Notes under the pieces: generated by a model
Database searches by the model: none
What the model saw: the letters and a program-made list of their open reading frames with translations, nothing else
Told to the model about the DNA's origin: nothing
In this document: piece by piece, positions 34,312-45,396 of the stretch
Numbering within the stretch: position 1 is the first letter of the stretch
Layout: each line of letters opens with the position of its first letter
Made by a program: the position numbers and the translations under genes
Assembly (NCBI GenBank): GCA_964595645.1
Contig: CAZQQT010000002.1
Coordinates: 96,001-160,000 of the forward strand
DNA from: an uncultured Thermococci archaeon
GTDB taxonomy: Archaea; Methanobacteriota_B; Thermococci; Methanofastidiosales; B48-G16
DNA: 64,000 nucleotides
Direction: 5' to 3'

Positions 34312-35384
34312 TTTAAATCCTCCAGTACTTCTTTTACAGTTTCTTGTGGGACGTCGTTCCGCATGGCCACCGTACCTATCTCCTCAGGAAGTACGAATGT
34401 GATGTGATTCCGTTGTGTCTTTTTATCGTACTGCATCCTCTCAAGAACAGCACTCGTACTGACTTCGGGGAGCGTTGTGGGGAGTCCGGTCTGGACGATA
34501 AGTTCTTCTTGCCGGTGTACAGCCTCGGTGTAGAGAATTCCCATTTTTTCTGCAATCCGTGCGGCGGCACACATTCCTATTGCCACAGCTCCTCCATGAG
34601 ATAGTGTAAAATTGGTAACAGCTTCAAGTGCATGCCCCACTGTGTGTCCATAGTTCAGTATCTTTCGCACTCCAATCTCCCTTTTATCCTTCTCCACAAC
34701 ACCGATCTTTATCCTACAACATTTTTCTATGATATCTTCCAGCGGAGGAGAAAGAAGAAGGTTTTCTCTACTTTCTTCAAGCGTCTCAAAGAGAGAAGCA
34801 TCTCTGATCATTGCATATTTTATTATCTCTGCAACACCATTTTTCATCTCCTCTTCAGGAAGCGTGGAAAGTACCTCTGTATCTATAAGGACGAGCTCCG
34901 GATCTTTGAATGCGCCGATGATATTTTTCGCATGTGTGTAGTTTACCCCTGTTTTTCCACCGATGCAGCTGTCTACTTGAGCGAGAAGAGTAGTGGGAAG
35001 ATGAATGAGCGGGAGACCTCTTAGATAGGTGGCGGCCACAAAACCTGCAAGATCTCCCACTACTCCCCCACCCAACGCGATTATAGGCGTGAATCTCTCT
35101 ATTCTGTGCTGTAGGAGCTCTTCGTAGATCATCGATGCCATTTCCAACGATTTGCTTTTTTCAGTGTCAGGAATTTCAAGCACCGTTAGCTCGAATTCCT
35201 CATTCAGTAAACTTTTCTTCACGGTCTCTCCATGCAGCTCATTGATCGTTTTATTTGTCACAATTACTGCTTTGGAAGAGTACCCTCTTTTTTTCAGCAT
35301 TGGCCCGATGGTGGAGAGGATCCCACGATCTATAAAGATCCCATAGTTGTTCTGAGGGTGATGGACAGTCAGCTTCCGTCTCAT
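34308..35384 (-). CDS. aroB: 3-dehydroquinate synthase (classical AroB)
   Basis: [38 protein letters not shown]. Confidence 0.96.
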
Positions 35385-36367
35385 ATATCTATCATCCTCT
35401 TAAGCTGATGCATCATCTCTGCGAATTGATCGGTTGTGAGCGATTGGTTTCCATCACATAGCGCATCAGCGGGTCTGTTGTGTACCTCTACCATGACACC
35501 ATCTGCACCTGCCGCAATAGCGGCCTTTACCAGAGGGATTACAGCACTCCGTTTCCCCGTGGCATGACTCGGGTCAATGATTACGGGGAGGTGGGTGAGT
35601 TCATTGAGTACAGGAACAGCACTGATATCCAGGGTATTTCTTGTTGCAGTCTCAAATGTCTTGATTCCCCGTTCACAAAGTACCACATTCGGGTTTCCTT
35701 GCGACATAATATACTCTGTTGCAAAAAGGAGATCTTTGATCGTGGCATTCATACTTCGTTTTAGGAATATGGGTTTGGACTGTTTTCCTACTTCCTTGAG
35801 GAGGGAGAAATTCTGCATGTTCCTGGCTCCGATCTGTAACATATCGGAGTATTTCTCTACCAAAGGCACATCCCGTGTGTCCATCACCTCTGTGACGATA
35901 GGGAGTCCTGTTTCTTCCCGTGCCTTTTCGAGAAGTTTTAATCCCAGTTCACCCAACCCCTGAAAGGAGTAGGGGGATGTTCGCGGCTTGAATGCGCCGC
36001 CGCGGAGAATTGATGCTCCCTCTTTCTTTACTCGGTGTGCGGTCTCCAGTAACTGCTCTTTGGTCTCAACACTGCAGGGACCGGCAATGACTACTGGTTT
36101 TTCACCTATAGCTATTCCGCCTACATCTATTACCGTCTTTTTGTCTTTAAACTCCCTTCCAGCCAGAATATATCGTTGGGGGGAAAATATCACTTCTTTT
36201 ACTTCCTGCAGCTGTGATATTTTTTTCACGTCGGAAATATTTTTTGCTACAACCACCGGAGCCGAAAACTCTACCGAAAAGACATCAGAACAGGTTTTTT
36301 TCAGCTGTTCCTCTATCTTAGATCGTTGCAATTTCGATAGATTTTTCTTCAGTACAACTGCGTACAA
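35381..36367 (-). CDS. aroF: DAHP synthase class I-beta with N-terminal regulatory domain (start moved to TTG 36367)
   Basis: [40 protein letters not shown]; SD AGGGGA precedes TTG-TAC-GCA-GTT-GTA. Confidence 0.93.
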
Positions 36368-36392
36368 TCCCCTGCTTTCTTTTCTCTCCAAC

Positions 36393-36518
36393 TTAATTGT
36401 TTTTAGAGAAGGATGACCAATCGAACTCATAGTCATCTCCTCCACAATCTACACAGGCCACCTCATCCTGTCCATTGTCGTTTTCACTATTTTCGTTTCC
36501 TTCACTTTTACATTTCAT
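36393..36518 (-). CDS. Putative aro-operon leader peptide, 41 aa (not in ORF track)
   Basis: [41 protein letters not shown]; SD AGGTGG, own promoter, paralogue at 38533-38649. Confidence 0.8.
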
Positions 36519-36553
36519 TTATTCCACCTTTCCCCTGATATAGACATGCATGC

Positions 36554-36570
36554 ATTTAAAAGGTTTTTGG
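36554..36570 (-). promoter_or_regulatory. BRE-TATA promoter of the aro leader/operon
   Basis: CCAAAAACC-TTTTAAAT, near-identical to the promoter at 38681-38696. Confidence 0.7.
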
Positions 36571-36640
36571 TGCATTTTTATGTACATGTAGTAGTTCATT
36601 GACTATGTAGATCAATATTCATCAAATTTTCGGACACAGA

Positions 36641-37411
36641 CTAAAGATTTTTTCTTAGCGTTTCGATAAAGGTTACCATCTCACTATAGCTTTTTTTCGT
36701 GACTATATCTCTAAAATTTTCTAGCTGAGTAGTAATTTTCTCAATTTCTGCAAGCGAGTAGGGAGCAAAGAGTATTTCAGCAAGAAGATGGTTATCTTCC
36801 TCTAACAGTTTTCGTGCTACTTCCTGATGTCTTGTGAATGTTGTTCCTGGAACAGCTTTCTCCGGGAGACAGGCAGCAAAAATCAGGGAACAAATAAAAG
36901 GAAGCGCAAGCGAGTCTGCCATGAGGCTATCATGTTCATCGAAGGAACATTCGTATATATGGACACCACGAGTGAGAAAGAACCTCTTAAAAAACTGTTT
37001 GGCTGCAGTATCAGATTCTTCTATAATGATAACATTCTCTTCTTTCAAATCATCAAATGTAGTGAATCTGGGACCGAACATTGGATGGATCGAGGCATAC
37101 CTGTTTCCACACTCTTGGTAGTACAACGGCAGTTTTCCTTTAATGGAAGCAATATCCACAAGAATACAGGCCGATGGCAAGTATGGTGCAACTTCCTCAA
37201 AAACCTCGACGGTATGCTGCAGACTCACCGCATTTATCACCATTTCAGGGTCGAAGGATTTAACCTCTGCGATAGCATCGAGATGAGTAACTCCCTCTAC
37301 TGCCTCTCTTTTCTCTTTATCTTCATCGTAGATTGCTATCTCATGATTTTTTGAGAGCTCACGGGCCAGCCATGAGCCCATATTTCCAACACCTATCACC
37401 GCGATCCTCAT
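36641..37411 (-). CDS. tyrA: Prephenate dehydrogenase (start moved to ATG 37411)
   Basis: MRIAVIGVGNMG, DIASIK, HPMFGP, EHDSLMA; ATGA overlap with the pheA stop. Confidence 0.9.
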   Translation of the reverse strand: MRIAVIGVGNMGSWLARELSKNHEIAIYDEDKEKREAVEGVTHLDAIAEVKSFDPEMVINAVSLQHTVEVFEEVAPYLPSACILVDIASIKGKLPLYYQECGNRYASIHPMFGPRFTTFDDLKEENVIIIEESDTAAKQFFKRFFLTRGVHIYECSFDEHDSLMADSLALPFICSLIFAACLPEKAVPGTTFTRHQEVARKLLEEDNHLLAEILFAPYSLAEIEKITTQLENFRDIVTKKSYSEMVTFIETLRKNL

Positions 37412-38463
37412 AGGATCGCCTCCGGGTAGCAGCCGAGGAATTTGTAGATTAGTGTTCGATCTTTCATCTCGCGAAGCATCTCTTTTATTCTCTCCTCTTC
37501 CACAGATCCCTGAAAATCGAGTAGAAACATGTAATGCCCGGGTCTTTCTTTTATAGGCCGGGATATTATTCGTGTGAGATTTATGTTTTTCTCGGTAAAT
37601 ATACGAAGCAGACGGTGGAGGGCACCGGGTTCGTGCTTTACTGAAACGACAATAGAACATTTTGTTCCCTTTCCACAGGGAGCAGAGGAGACAACCACGA
37701 ACCGGGTAAAATTCGAGGACACATCCCCGACGTTTCTTTTTATTATTTCGAGATTGTAACGTTCTGCACATAGTGTACTTGCGATAGCTGCAGTGGCAGG
37801 TGGGAAGGTATCTGCGATCATCCTAGCAGCACCAGCAGTATCGTAGTATGGAACTATCTCGATTCCAGTCTCCGTAAGAAAGCTCCTGCACTGTGCCAAT
37901 GCCTGCGGGTGAGAGTATACTTTTTTAATCTCGCTGAGTTCAGTGCTTGGTGGTGCGAGAAGAGCATGGTGGACAGGAAGCTGTATCTCTCCCACTATTG
38001 GAAGCTCATACGCTATTAGAAGATCCGTTACTTCTGTCACCGTTCCTTCGATTGAATTCTCAATAGGGACAATTCCCAGATCAAACCATCCATGCTCCAC
38101 CGCCTCGAATATTTCAGCAAAGGCTGTGCAGGGGATGGGCACCATTTTTTCGCTGTATCGTTTTGCAGCCATCTCCCCGTAAGCACCGTGTTCACCCTGA
38201 AATCCTATAAGTGCATGTTTTTCTCTCTGGAGTTTTTTACTTTCTGCAATTATTTTCTTAAAAATTTGTGAAGCAAACTCGTCATCTATCAGATCATGGC
38301 AGTACGTTTTAACAGTATTTATAACGCACTGTTCTCTCTTTTCATCAGTGATTTTCTCCTTCAGTTTCGTAGTCCGTAATGCCAGCTCCATTCGTTCGTT
38401 CAGCAGCGAGATAATTTCACGATCTATCCGGTTTATCTCCTCCCTTAGAAGTGTTAACTCCAT
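37408..38463 (-). CDS. pheA: Bifunctional chorismate mutase / prephenate dehydratase
   Basis: LREEINRID..LLNER, QGEHGAY, VPIENS, SHPQALAQC, NFTRF, ACT domain (PGAL, NLTRIISRP). Confidence 0.95.
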   Translation of the reverse strand: MELTLLREEINRIDREIISLLNERMELALRTTKLKEKITDEKREQCVINTVKTYCHDLIDDEFASQIFKKIIAESKKLQREKHALIGFQGEHGAYGEMAAKRYSEKMVPIPCTAFAEIFEAVEHGWFDLGIVPIENSIEGTVTEVTDLLIAYELPIVGEIQLPVHHALLAPPSTELSEIKKVYSHPQALAQCRSFLTETGIEIVPYYDTAGAARMIADTFPPATAAIASTLCAERYNLEIIKRNVGDVSSNFTRFVVVSSAPCGKGTKCSIVVSVKHEPGALHRLLRIFTEKNINLTRIISRPIKERPGHYMFLLDFQGSVEEERIKEMLREMKDRTLIYKFLGCYPEAIL

Positions 38464-38532
38464 TCTTCCCCCCTCCAGAGAGATCCGTCCCTCTTTATCA
38501 CTGACACTCTCAGAAAAGTAATACTCTGTCCT

Positions 38533-38649
38533 TCACATTGATTCGTCCGGGAACGACTGGAAACAGAAGTCATAGTCGCTCCCTCCGCTATCTCGGCAGC
38601 TTAACATATCATCTCCGCCATCCTCATTTTCTTGTTCTCCATTGTTCAT
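38533..38649 (-). CDS. Putative pheA-tyrA leader peptide, 38 aa (not in ORF track)
   Basis: MNNGEQENEDGGDDMLSCRDSGGSDYDFCFQSFPDESM; own promoter; paralogue of 36393-36518. Confidence 0.8.
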   Translation of the reverse strand: MNNGEQENEDGGDDMLSCRDSGGSDYDFCFQSFPDESM

Positions 38650-38680
38650 GATACCTACCTAGACTCTCCTACACAGCTGT

Positions 38681-38696
38681 ATTTAAAAGGTTTTGG
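38681..38696 (-). promoter_or_regulatory. BRE-TATA promoter of the phe/tyr leader/operon
   Basis: CCAAAACC-TTTTAAAT. Confidence 0.7.
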
Positions 38697-43706: not shown

Positions 43707-45067
43707 TCTAACACCTCGTGAACAGCCTTTTTCATTGCCTCGAGTTTTTTTTCTGTTTCAAAGTACTCTTTCTCAGGGATAGAATCTGCAACAATTCCTG
43801 CACCGGCCTGCATCGTCAACACTCCTTTATTTACAGTGAGGGTCCTTATTGTAATTGCAAAGTCCATGTCACCGTTATATGAAAAATATCCCACACCCCC
43901 TGCGTAGATATCCCGTTTTTCTGGTTCTAATTCCTCGATAATTTCCATGGCTCGTATTTTTGGAGCACCACTTACAGTACCGGCTGGAAATGTTGCCCTG
44001 AAGAGGTCAAAGGCGTCTAGATCTTCACGAAGTATACCAGAAACACTGGAAACTAAATGTTGAACATGACTGTACTTCTCAACAACCATAAAGTCTCCCA
44101 CCGTCACCGATCCGTACTCACAGACCTTTCCGAGATCGTTTCTTCCGAGATCGAGGAGCATTACATGTTCTGCTCGTTCCTTTTCATCTGTCAGCATCTC
44201 TTCTGCAAGCATTGCATCTCTTTCTTCAGTTTTTCCTCTTCTCCGAGTTCCAGCAATAGGCCGTACCCACGCTTTTTTACCCTCTAGCCGCACCAACATT
44301 TCAGGGCTACTTCCCAGTACAAAAAGATCGTCAAAGTGTAGAAAGTACATATAGGGTGAGGGATTGATTTTCCTGAGAGCGCGGTAAAGAAGGAGAGGAT
44401 CACAGTCTACCTCAGCTCTGAGTTTTCGTGAGAGAACGACCTGGAAAATATCCCCTGCGTAGATATACTCCTTGGCTCTTTGCACTATTTTCTCAAATGC
44501 TTTTTTTGAGATAGAGGAATAAAATTTTTTGTGTGTTCCATTAGTAGATAGTATCTTTTTTTCCTTCAACTTTTCTTCAAGACACGCAATTCGTTCCTCC
44601 GCACGGCTGTACGGTTCATGGCTGTCCAATGTAACAAGGATGTATGTCTTCTTGGCGACATGATCGAATACAATACAGTCATCGGTTACCATGAAGAGTG
44701 CATCGGGAATGGCATTCTCTACATTTTCTTTGGGTAGCCTTTCAAACTGCCTCACCATATCATAAGAAACAAACCCCACGATGCCTCCAACGAATCTCGA
44801 TATATTTTTATCTGAGCATGTTTTCTTTTGTACAAACTTTTCCAGAGATTCTATGGACTTATCCTTCAGCGAGATATGTTCCCTGGAGATGCCAAGGAAG
44901 GAGAATCTAGCAGTTTTATCAAACTCCGCACTTTCAAGGAGAAAAGAGTAGGGCTTTTTAATCCTCAAATAGGCTTCTAAAGGTGAAATGTTTAGTTTAA
45001 TCTCCTTAGACAGACATATTTTTTCATAATCTTTTCTTACATCTTCAAATTCTGATCTCGATAACAT
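43703..45067 (-). CDS. trpE: Anthranilate synthase component I
   Basis: FLLES, GDIFQVVLS, NPSPYM, PIAGT, KERAEH.ML.DLGRND, PAGTVSGAPK. Confidence 0.96.
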   Translation of the reverse strand: MLSRSEFEDVRKDYEKICLSKEIKLNISPLEAYLRIKKPYSFLLESAEFDKTARFSFLGISREHISLKDKSIESLEKFVQKKTCSDKNISRFVGGIVGFVSYDMVRQFERLPKENVENAIPDALFMVTDDCIVFDHVAKKTYILVTLDSHEPYSRAEERIACLEEKLKEKKILSTNGTHKKFYSSISKKAFEKIVQRAKEYIYAGDIFQVVLSRKLRAEVDCDPLLLYRALRKINPSPYMYFLHFDDLFVLGSSPEMLVRLEGKKAWVRPIAGTRRRGKTEERDAMLAEEMLTDEKERAEHVMLLDLGRNDLGKVCEYGSVTVGDFMVVEKYSHVQHLVSSVSGILREDLDAFDLFRATFPAGTVSGAPKIRAMEIIEELEPEKRDIYAGGVGYFSYNGDMDFAITIRTLTVNKGVLTMQAGAGIVADSIPEKEYFETEKKLEAMKKAVHEVLE

Positions 45068-45105: not shown

Positions 45106-45176
45106 TTAGAATCGCCACTCCTCTAATAAAGAGAGAAATTCCAGTGTTCCCAGTAGGGGCTTACTCTGCATACCAT
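45106..45176 (-). CDS. Putative trp leader peptide(s): MQSKPLLGTLEFLSLLEEWRF (45171-45106) and overlapping MVCRVSPYWEHWNFSLY (45176-45123)
   Basis: ATG 45171 lies 29 nt from the TATA start, the spacing seen at leaderless genes in this window; the alternative frame has 2 Trp, 2 Tyr and 1 Phe. Confidence 0.55.
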
Positions 45177-45192: not shown

Positions 45193-45237
45193 TTTATAAA
45201 CTTTACGCTTTTGTACATGAAAGTATAATATAGTACA
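45193..45237 (-). promoter_or_regulatory. trp promoter (TTTATAAA) plus three TRP-box-like hexamers
   Basis: TGTACA 45212-45217, AGTATA 45222-45227, AGTACA 45232-45237 (4-bp spacers) next to BRE/TATA. Confidence 0.6.
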
Positions 45238-45396
45238 TCAATTACACTTTATATACCTCAAACTACTATTTATATTAAAGTCGTTGATAGTTCCTTCAGA
45301 TATTTCACACAACACCCATCGAATTCCCTTCTGTACCTTTTCGTTCCATTGCGAAAGATACAAAAATTTAAATAGTTACAGTTACAATAGGTATGT

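Follow-up and report, generated by a model that had tools for sequence, protein, structure and literature searches.

Can an archaeon adjust its aromatic amino acid operons through short leader peptides? The question is raised by two minus-strand open reading frames (ORFs) of 41 and 38 amino acids (aa), which head the aro and pheA-tyrA operons of an uncultured archaeon of the order Methanofastidiosales. Both lie in the window analysed here, a stretch of 64,000 nucleotides (nt) of contig CAZQQT010000002.1 (positions 96,001 to 160,000 of the forward strand; assembly GCA_964595645.1). The original prediction took them for a pair of aromatic leader peptides, and its coordinates (36518-36393 and 38649-38533) and translations proved right. 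Comparison of nine distinct homologous loci indicates that these leaders are a real, selected cis-regulatory module. What is conserved across the loci is an RNA layout and not the whole peptide: a Shine-Dalgarno (SD) element and a +1-frame AUG are embedded in the leader and sequestered by a hairpin, with the aromatic codons at the hidden start. The embedded SD and AUG, the hairpin and a connector ORF to pheA were all absent from the original prediction. The elements of the two units are given below, where G001 is a related genome (the present one being G000) and L numbers are individual loci.

36554..36570, minus strand: promoter of the aro operon, resembling a transcription factor B recognition element (BRE) and TATA box; kept in G001, L056 and L114
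36393..36518, minus strand: aro leader ORF, 41 aa, with Tyr, Phe and Trp sensor codons and its own SD; orthologues in G001/L002, L056, L114 and L117
36407..36443, minus strand: aro hairpin; the 5' arm is the SD GGAGGAGAU plus GACU, the aroF AUG and the aromatic codons lie in the loop, and the 3' arm is the anti-SD
35381..36430, minus strand: aroF, 3-deoxy-D-arabino-heptulosonate 7-phosphate (DAHP) synthase, 349 aa; starts at the +1-frame AUG overlapping the leader Tyr codon
38681..38696, minus strand: promoter of pheA-tyrA, BRE/TATA-like; comparable sites in L068, L069 and L070
38533..38649, minus strand: phe leader ORF, 38 aa, with Tyr and Phe and without Trp; counterparts in L068, L069, L070-73 and L166
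38549..38583, minus strand: phe hairpin, SD-sequestering and paralogous to the aro hairpin, with compensatory changes (-19.8 kcal/mol, z -2.9)
38454..38573, minus strand: connector ORF, 39 aa, begun at the hidden AUG in the +1 frame and ending in a 10-nt overlap with the pheA start; a degenerate copy of the AroF N-terminus
37408..38463, minus strand: pheA, chorismate mutase-prephenate dehydratase-ACT
36641..37411, minus strand: tyrA, prephenate dehydrogenase-like (above the Pfam PDH_N cut-off, below the NCBIfam cut-offs)

Conserved architecture of the leaders

In all nine loci, the codons of the G-G-x-D stretch form an SD complementary to the 16S end GAUCACCUCCU, with a duplex energy of -7.5 to -11.6 kcal/mol. 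The Tyr codon that follows is always TAT and the next codon always begins with G, which preserves the +1-frame AUG, and the Ser codons after the Tyr make up the anti-SD arm. Across the nine loci 95.5% of the cells of the 10-bp stem are paired, and four of the ten pairs have changed on both sides. Of 500 shuffles, 0 attain this pairing; the stem stands above nearly all shuffles and all slid controls, a comparison that is inflated by the kinship of the loci. The stem has also left its imprint on codon choice, Asp being always GAC and Ser always TCR. The aro hairpin of this genome has a z of -3.1. Counted from the AUG, which the Tyr codon overlaps, the Phe position is +6 to +8 and the Trp position +12 to +17, and the leader stop follows 33-45 nt past the AUG, beyond the 3' arm.

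Folding of the nine loci points to a start that is normally closed. Opening it costs 9-13 kcal/mol in the ribosome-free RNA, and with a ribosome footprint at the leader stop the start is sealed again (8.8-17 kcal/mol). In effect, it is open only for as long as a ribosome sits across the initiation zone, and the conserved sensor codons overlap that zone in nine of nine loci, a result of the footprint model only.

These constraints bear on the proposal that the leaders are sequence-specific arrest peptides, in which a free aromatic amino acid would cause the nascent peptide to stall over the SD and AUG and so repress the operon. Simple occlusion would give the right sign of regulation, the Trp follows the pathway and similar motifs occur in seven of the nine leaders. 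However, the invariant non-aromatic residues, whose conservation had suggested arrest, are the codons of the SD-sequestering hairpin, fixed as GAC and TCR by the stem; the distance to the stop varies (33-45 nt), and the hairpin is predicted to repress already without a stall. The Cys residues vary too: the first (Cys22) is S, T, R or G in homologues and the second S, T, R or K, so that the C-x-D-[CS] part of the motif shared by the two ORFs of this window is not conserved beyond them. Likewise, the N-termini are aromatic-free throughout, as had been noted, but not always acidic, that of L070 being basic. We consider arrest by the peptide improbable.

In the 1.97-Mb genome, translated in six frames, the G-G-x-D-Y-x-F peptide motif is confined to the two leaders. 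Neither leader matches a Pfam or NCBIfam family above cut-off or any Rfam family. We found no sign of a precursor of a ribosomally synthesized and post-translationally modified peptide (RiPP) or of a small zinc finger: there is no conserved Cys and no family match, and the neighbours are solely aromatic-pathway genes. The leaders' own SDs form duplexes of -9.0 (aro) and -7.0 (phe) kcal/mol with the 16S 3' end. Each leader is the first ORF after the promoter-like sequence CCAAAA(A)CCTTTTAAAT (36570 and 38696). The near-identical promoter that had been described is thus present before both ORFs, although it is largely generic, BRE/TATA-like sequence with three more one-mismatch copies elsewhere in the genome. 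Palindromic TGTACA/TGTACT boxes lie just upstream of the TATA boxes of aroF and trpE (~36580-36590 and 45210-45240) and are partly retained in relatives. They are possible operators of a TrpY-like repressor; that TGTACA is the TrpY box found no confirmation in a literature search. The stretch is spanned with zero differences by one DNA contig from sequencing runs, possibly the window's own source.

The aro leader is the first ORF of its operon, as predicted, but aroF does not simply follow it: it begins inside the leader, at 36430, with an overlap of 38 nt and the leader stop 36-38 nt past the AUG. Gene callers place the aroF start at this embedded AUG, and comparison with the orthologues supports correcting it accordingly. 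Two other starts were rejected, a TTG at 36367 (CTG, CTC or CTG at that position in orthologues) and a GTG at 36445. In the phe units, the hidden AUG instead starts a connector ORF of 39, 74, 52 or 70 aa, depending on the locus, which stays open and has its stop 10-14 nt inside pheA, the frame being one of two. In this genome, the phe leader and pheA share a frame and are split only by the leader TGA (38533-38463), an arrangement that the relatives lack; read-through of this UGA into pheA was rejected, as it is not conserved.

Distribution and origin of the module

The nine loci were gathered by genome search, profile search, inspection of the genes next to pheA and aroF, and a DNA pattern scan of metagenomes that made no use of gene context. 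Five carry common-pathway leaders, before aroF in this genome, G001, L056 and L114 and before aroA' in L117/L070, and four carry pheA leaders (this genome, L068, L069 and L070-73/L166). The module heads only aromatic-pathway genes in all nine, and none stands beside unrelated genes such as RiPP maturases. The gene aroA', which encodes the entry enzyme of the 6-deoxy-5-ketofructose 1-phosphate (DKFP) route, is non-homologous to aroF, yet is headed by the same module; the relative represented by L070-L073/L166 has this route (aroA', aroB') instead of the DAHP synthase of G000. The connector before aroA' (L070:2697-2903; L117) ends with 9 aromatic residues in 12, followed by a U tract, and could form part of a two-tier switch.

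Outside these loci, the searches returned little. A profile search of 1.84 billion representatives gave three matches, and a peptide-profile search of 61 relatives gave true matches only in G000 and G001; its weaker matches were noise at the eight loci inspected, and the remainder lay at E 0.08-0.7. The metagenome pattern scan produced 23 matches, of which two are real, both ahead of aromatic-pathway genes. The other 21, against a rough chance estimate of ~15, lack the leader layout and were rejected. The pattern scan of GTDB genomes had no matches, and an RNA model run on 41 genomes plus 80 distant pheA loci matched solely loci of this lineage. The module was thus not found in the order's other families, in the Thermococcales searched or at the 80 distant pheA loci. 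We did not find pheA in G001 (94% complete; contig break). The metagenome loci carry no taxonomy, and their relatedness was judged from synteny and pairwise identities. A trpA upstream and the gene order aroF-aroB-aroD suggest that they come from close kin of this archaeon; trpA itself is a 56-aa fragment in L070-73 and intact in L166.

The connectors of L068 and L114 are plain copies of the AroF N-terminus. The pheA unit thus descends from a duplicated aroF 5' end and has lost Trp, as far as sequence comparison can tell. In L114 (reverse complement 1-110), the pheA connector is near-identical to the aroF 5' region of the same contig, by recent gene conversion or assembly collapse. The idea of a duplicated module retuned to each pathway has held up well: the module is conserved, duplicated and found beside aromatic-pathway genes only, and it differs between pathways in its Trp codon.

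Selection on the aromatic codons

Trp is present in five of five common-pathway leaders and in none of four pheA leaders, which bears out the split first noticed in this genome (Fisher p 0.008 if the loci were independent, which kin are not). At the Trp position, the pheA leaders have F, S, R or nothing, differing by locus. No aromatic residue occurs among the 234 N-terminal residues of the nine leaders, compared with 9.3% genome-wide. The loop Phe is kept in all eight aligned leaders, TTC and TTT being used equally often, while the residue in the overlapping +1 frame varies between S, L and F. The ninth leader has its Phe ahead of Tyr. In L114, a codon insertion has shifted Trp out of the stem, and Trp is still kept. 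The phe leader of L068 and the aro leader of L114 differ at only 6 of 129 nt, five of them in four loop codons (DFDW to AFNS) and the sixth a change from TAA to TAG, a comparison that appears strong but not clean, as the two come from different samples and the loop is the unpaired part.

The same data bear on the possibility of constitutive coupling or damping of the kind found in the coat-lysis overlaps of phages fr and MS2, in which nothing would be sensed and the conserved residues would be by-products of the SD, the AUG and the hairpin. The 38-nt overlap equals the phage fr coat-lysis value, G-G-D-Y-[DE] is almost fully dictated by the SD and the AUG, and in the stem the T of TAT is base-paired. 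By-products of this kind do not explain why the loop Phe is kept synonymously, why Trp is retained unpaired in L114 and missing in every phe copy, why changes concentrate in the loop codons, or why no aromatic codon occurs upstream of the motif; moreover, the his and trp operons have cognate leaders as well. In our judgement, coupling without sensing is quite unlikely.

A model for sensing and its alternatives

It is probable that the module senses tRNA charge by one route or another. As to the route, we lean tentatively towards a ribosome that stalls on an aromatic codon and, once released, initiates anew at the hidden AUG. When amino acids are plentiful, ribosomes would finish the leader, where their termination site is too distant for reinitiation to be efficient; the hairpin would re-form, and aroF, or the connector to pheA, would stay low, an effect on the operon that polarity would probably magnify. 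With uncharged Tyr or Phe tRNA, and also Trp tRNA for the common pathway, a ribosome would stall on the loop and hold the hairpin open. Release at the loop could occur by premature termination at the stop-like UAU or UGG, by drop-off or by Pelota/ABCE1 rescue, and the freed SD would then let the small subunit reinitiate at an AUG a few nucleotides off. In the phe unit, the connector would pass the signal to pheA by termination-reinitiation.

Several lines of reasoning lead to this model. According to the footprint model, the start is essentially open only under an overlapping ribosome, which leaves no room for a second ribosome when one has stalled on the conserved aromatic codons. A ribosome that completes the leader should not free the start, which is re-sealed by the time the leader stop is reached. 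Release on the loop followed by restart of the small subunit is favoured because the sign expected of a biosynthetic operon follows from it most simply. UAU and UGG are one base from stop codons and are hot spots of false termination in bacteria; two genes of the aRF1/Pelota family are present in the genome. If the Tyr, Phe and Trp codons are taken as stops, the overlaps are 2, 8 and 14 nt, as against 35-47 nt at the real stop. In archaea and bacteria alike, coupling is known to drop steeply as start and stop move apart, the drop being steeper for overlaps (PMC10666635; PMC12548453). A stalled 70S ribosome is able in vitro to shift to a nearby start in an SD-dependent manner (reviewed in PMC12548453).

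A number of points weigh against this model. To our knowledge, release and restart at a hungry sense codon is no established regulatory step. A stalled ribosome covers the AUG, and without release the sign would be wrong. Each leader has only two to four aromatic codons, clustered after the aromatic-free stretch and not arranged as a run. Taken singly, an overlap of this type or a hairpin of this strength is nothing unusual, because under a loose rule seven of ~1630 ORFs genome-wide have an overlapping SD-led short ORF, and the opening cost of the aroF start (11.3 kcal/mol) ranks 77th of 921. The hairpin of G001 is weak (-8.3 kcal/mol, z -0.6), all nine loci come from one small lineage, and the imperfect L068/L114 comparison must be added here. 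Furthermore, termination at -38 and -50 nt activates, rather than silences, the lysis genes of phages fr and MS2 (PMC12548453).

Alternatively, the hairpin could simply be unfolded: the trailing edge of a ribosome stalled at a distal Phe or Tyr would cover the 3' arm, so that the freed SD could take up a new 30S subunit. This is the logic of classical translational attenuation and of MS2 lysis, and an extra Phe or Tyr occurs between +18 and +36 in five of the nine leaders; with a ribosome on its Tyr at +36, L117 is predicted to have its opening cost lowered to 4.3 kcal/mol with no steric clash. Distal aromatic codons are lacking, however, in L056, L114, L068 and L069, and the codons that are conserved and pathway-specific are those of the loop, a position from which a stalled ribosome would reach over the initiation zone. 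We regard unfolding as unlikely, if slightly less so than the other alternatives.

Transcription could also be the controlled step. A ribosome stalled on the aromatic codons would shield the pyrimidine-rich 3' arm and the U tracts from the termination factor FttA/aCPSF1, and the embedded start would merely restore coupling afterwards. U-rich tracts follow in the AroF N-termini and connectors, no intrinsic terminator hairpin was found, and archaeal polarity has been ascribed to FttA (PMC12548453). Yet such a device would work without a hairpin that locks the SD and sets the AUG on the Tyr codon, and without a connector that stays coupled to pheA in two different frames; a stall would itself uncouple the transcription downstream. 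Factor-dependent attenuation seems rather improbable. A +1 frameshift at a hungry codon, joining the leader to AroF or to the connector, is in our view very improbable. In every locus the +1 frame lies open from the sensor codons onward, and the P-site codon has an SD immediately 5' of it, as in prfB; against this, no slippery P-site codon is conserved, re-pairing from GAC to ACU is impossible, and the conserved and locked AUG with its SD spacing would be needless.

Leaders of other amino acid operons

The aromatic leaders may be seen beside further leaders in the order. The window itself contains one, of the same regulon and a different design:

45106..45171, minus strand: trp leader, 21 aa, ending W-R-F-stop, before trpE

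In both genomes (this window and L055:1400-1465), this 21-aa leader ends W-R-F/L, and a start codon of the trpE frame shares bases with its Trp codon. The overlap reads A-UG-G in G001, where it is open into trpE and the usual trpE ATG is ATC; it reads G-UG-G in this genome, with one intervening stop before trpE. The hisG leader of G000 and G001 ends H-H-H-R-stop; simple melting fails to account for this leader in the footprint model. In G000 (C7, ~110 nt upstream of hisG at 126411, minus strand; L154), it ends L-H-H-H-R-stop 32 nt before hisG and is followed by an SD-sequestering hairpin; the leader is kept in G001.

Methanofastidiosum belongs to the same order and a different family. Seven operon-type hisG copies of this genus are preceded, at 20-22 nt, by an unrelated leader with two or three His at its end (L132, L133, L136-L140), whereas its ten stand-alone hisG copies have none. 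A leader with a run of Tyr and Phe precedes its aro operon. This leader, of ~23 aa and ending [LF]-Y-Y-[YC]-F-S-F-[RW]-Y-stop, lies before the chorismate mutase gene in the order chorismate mutase-aroF-aroF-aroB, with an 8-bp hairpin across the aromatic codons (L004, L006-L008, L010-L013, L015, L018). Taken together, these leaders suggest that cognate codons are an order-wide strategy. It is possible, though a shade less so than the release model by itself, that this lineage senses aromatic starvation by letting the stalled ribosome become the initiating ribosome of the biosynthetic gene, within an order-wide set of aro, phe, trp and his leaders. Among the other amino acid genes, a LysW-like small protein gene heads a lys operon (G000:C12, about 44890-45055), and ilvD was not found in G000 or G001.

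Comparison with known systems

The control of aromatic biosynthesis known in archaea relies on DNA-binding factors, TrpY and Tar. These act at promoters, unlike the leader module, and control the aro, tyr-phe and trp operons in Euryarchaeota (TK0271 being Tar); in Thermococcus, of the sister order Thermococcales, the activator Tar runs the same operons, with attenuation and leaders unmentioned (PMC6737238).

The locus shows how the regulatory 5' end of one operon can be copied to another and then retuned. It offers natural controls in the form of Trp-containing and Trp-free paralogues that are otherwise near-identical, in a sister order of the genetically tractable Thermococcales. A literature search, with most subscription journals outside its scope, found no archaeal leader-peptide attenuator; a 2005 study of trp in M. 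thermautotrophicus reportedly noted a very short Met-Trp minigene. Control of this kind is established in bacteria only, and the search came upon no account of the present layout or of a stalled ribosome turned into the initiating one as a means of sensing starvation. The module appears to be a new variant of leader-peptide control in archaea, possibly with a new read-out, confined to a small uncultured lineage. If the stalled ribosome does restart at the hidden AUG, ribosome rescue or mis-termination would serve as a nutrient switch, which would bear on how reinitiation works in prokaryotes.

The enterobacterial pheL-pheA, trpL and hisL attenuators, the Phe, Trp and His leaders of Rfam, resemble the module in their short first ORF, pathway-matched codons and RNA hairpin. 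They differ in having a run of codons, whereas here, in an archaeon, there are two to four sensor codons and the controlled start lies inside the leader. Between leader and first gene there are no terminator-like sites that could form an intrinsic terminator or antiterminator, and the next ORF starts within the leader. The module works like a leader-peptide attenuator, and falls outside the classical class because it has no terminator. With TnaC-type arrest peptides, it shares a short leader and a conserved Trp near the C-terminus, but here RNA constraints explain the peptide conservation and the operon is biosynthetic. In the translational attenuation of ermC and cat, an SD in a hairpin is likewise opened by the leader ribosome; there, the ribosome stalls upstream and leaves the ribosome-binding site free, whereas here it would stall on that site. 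The layout most resembles the coat-lysis overlaps of phages fr and MS2, where an out-of-frame, structured start lies 38-50 nt before the upstream stop and depends on translation (PMC12548453); four of the nine loci match phage fr at exactly -38 nt. The phage overlaps are constitutive and have no sensor codons, whereas the archaeal module places pathway-specific aromatic codons at the start.

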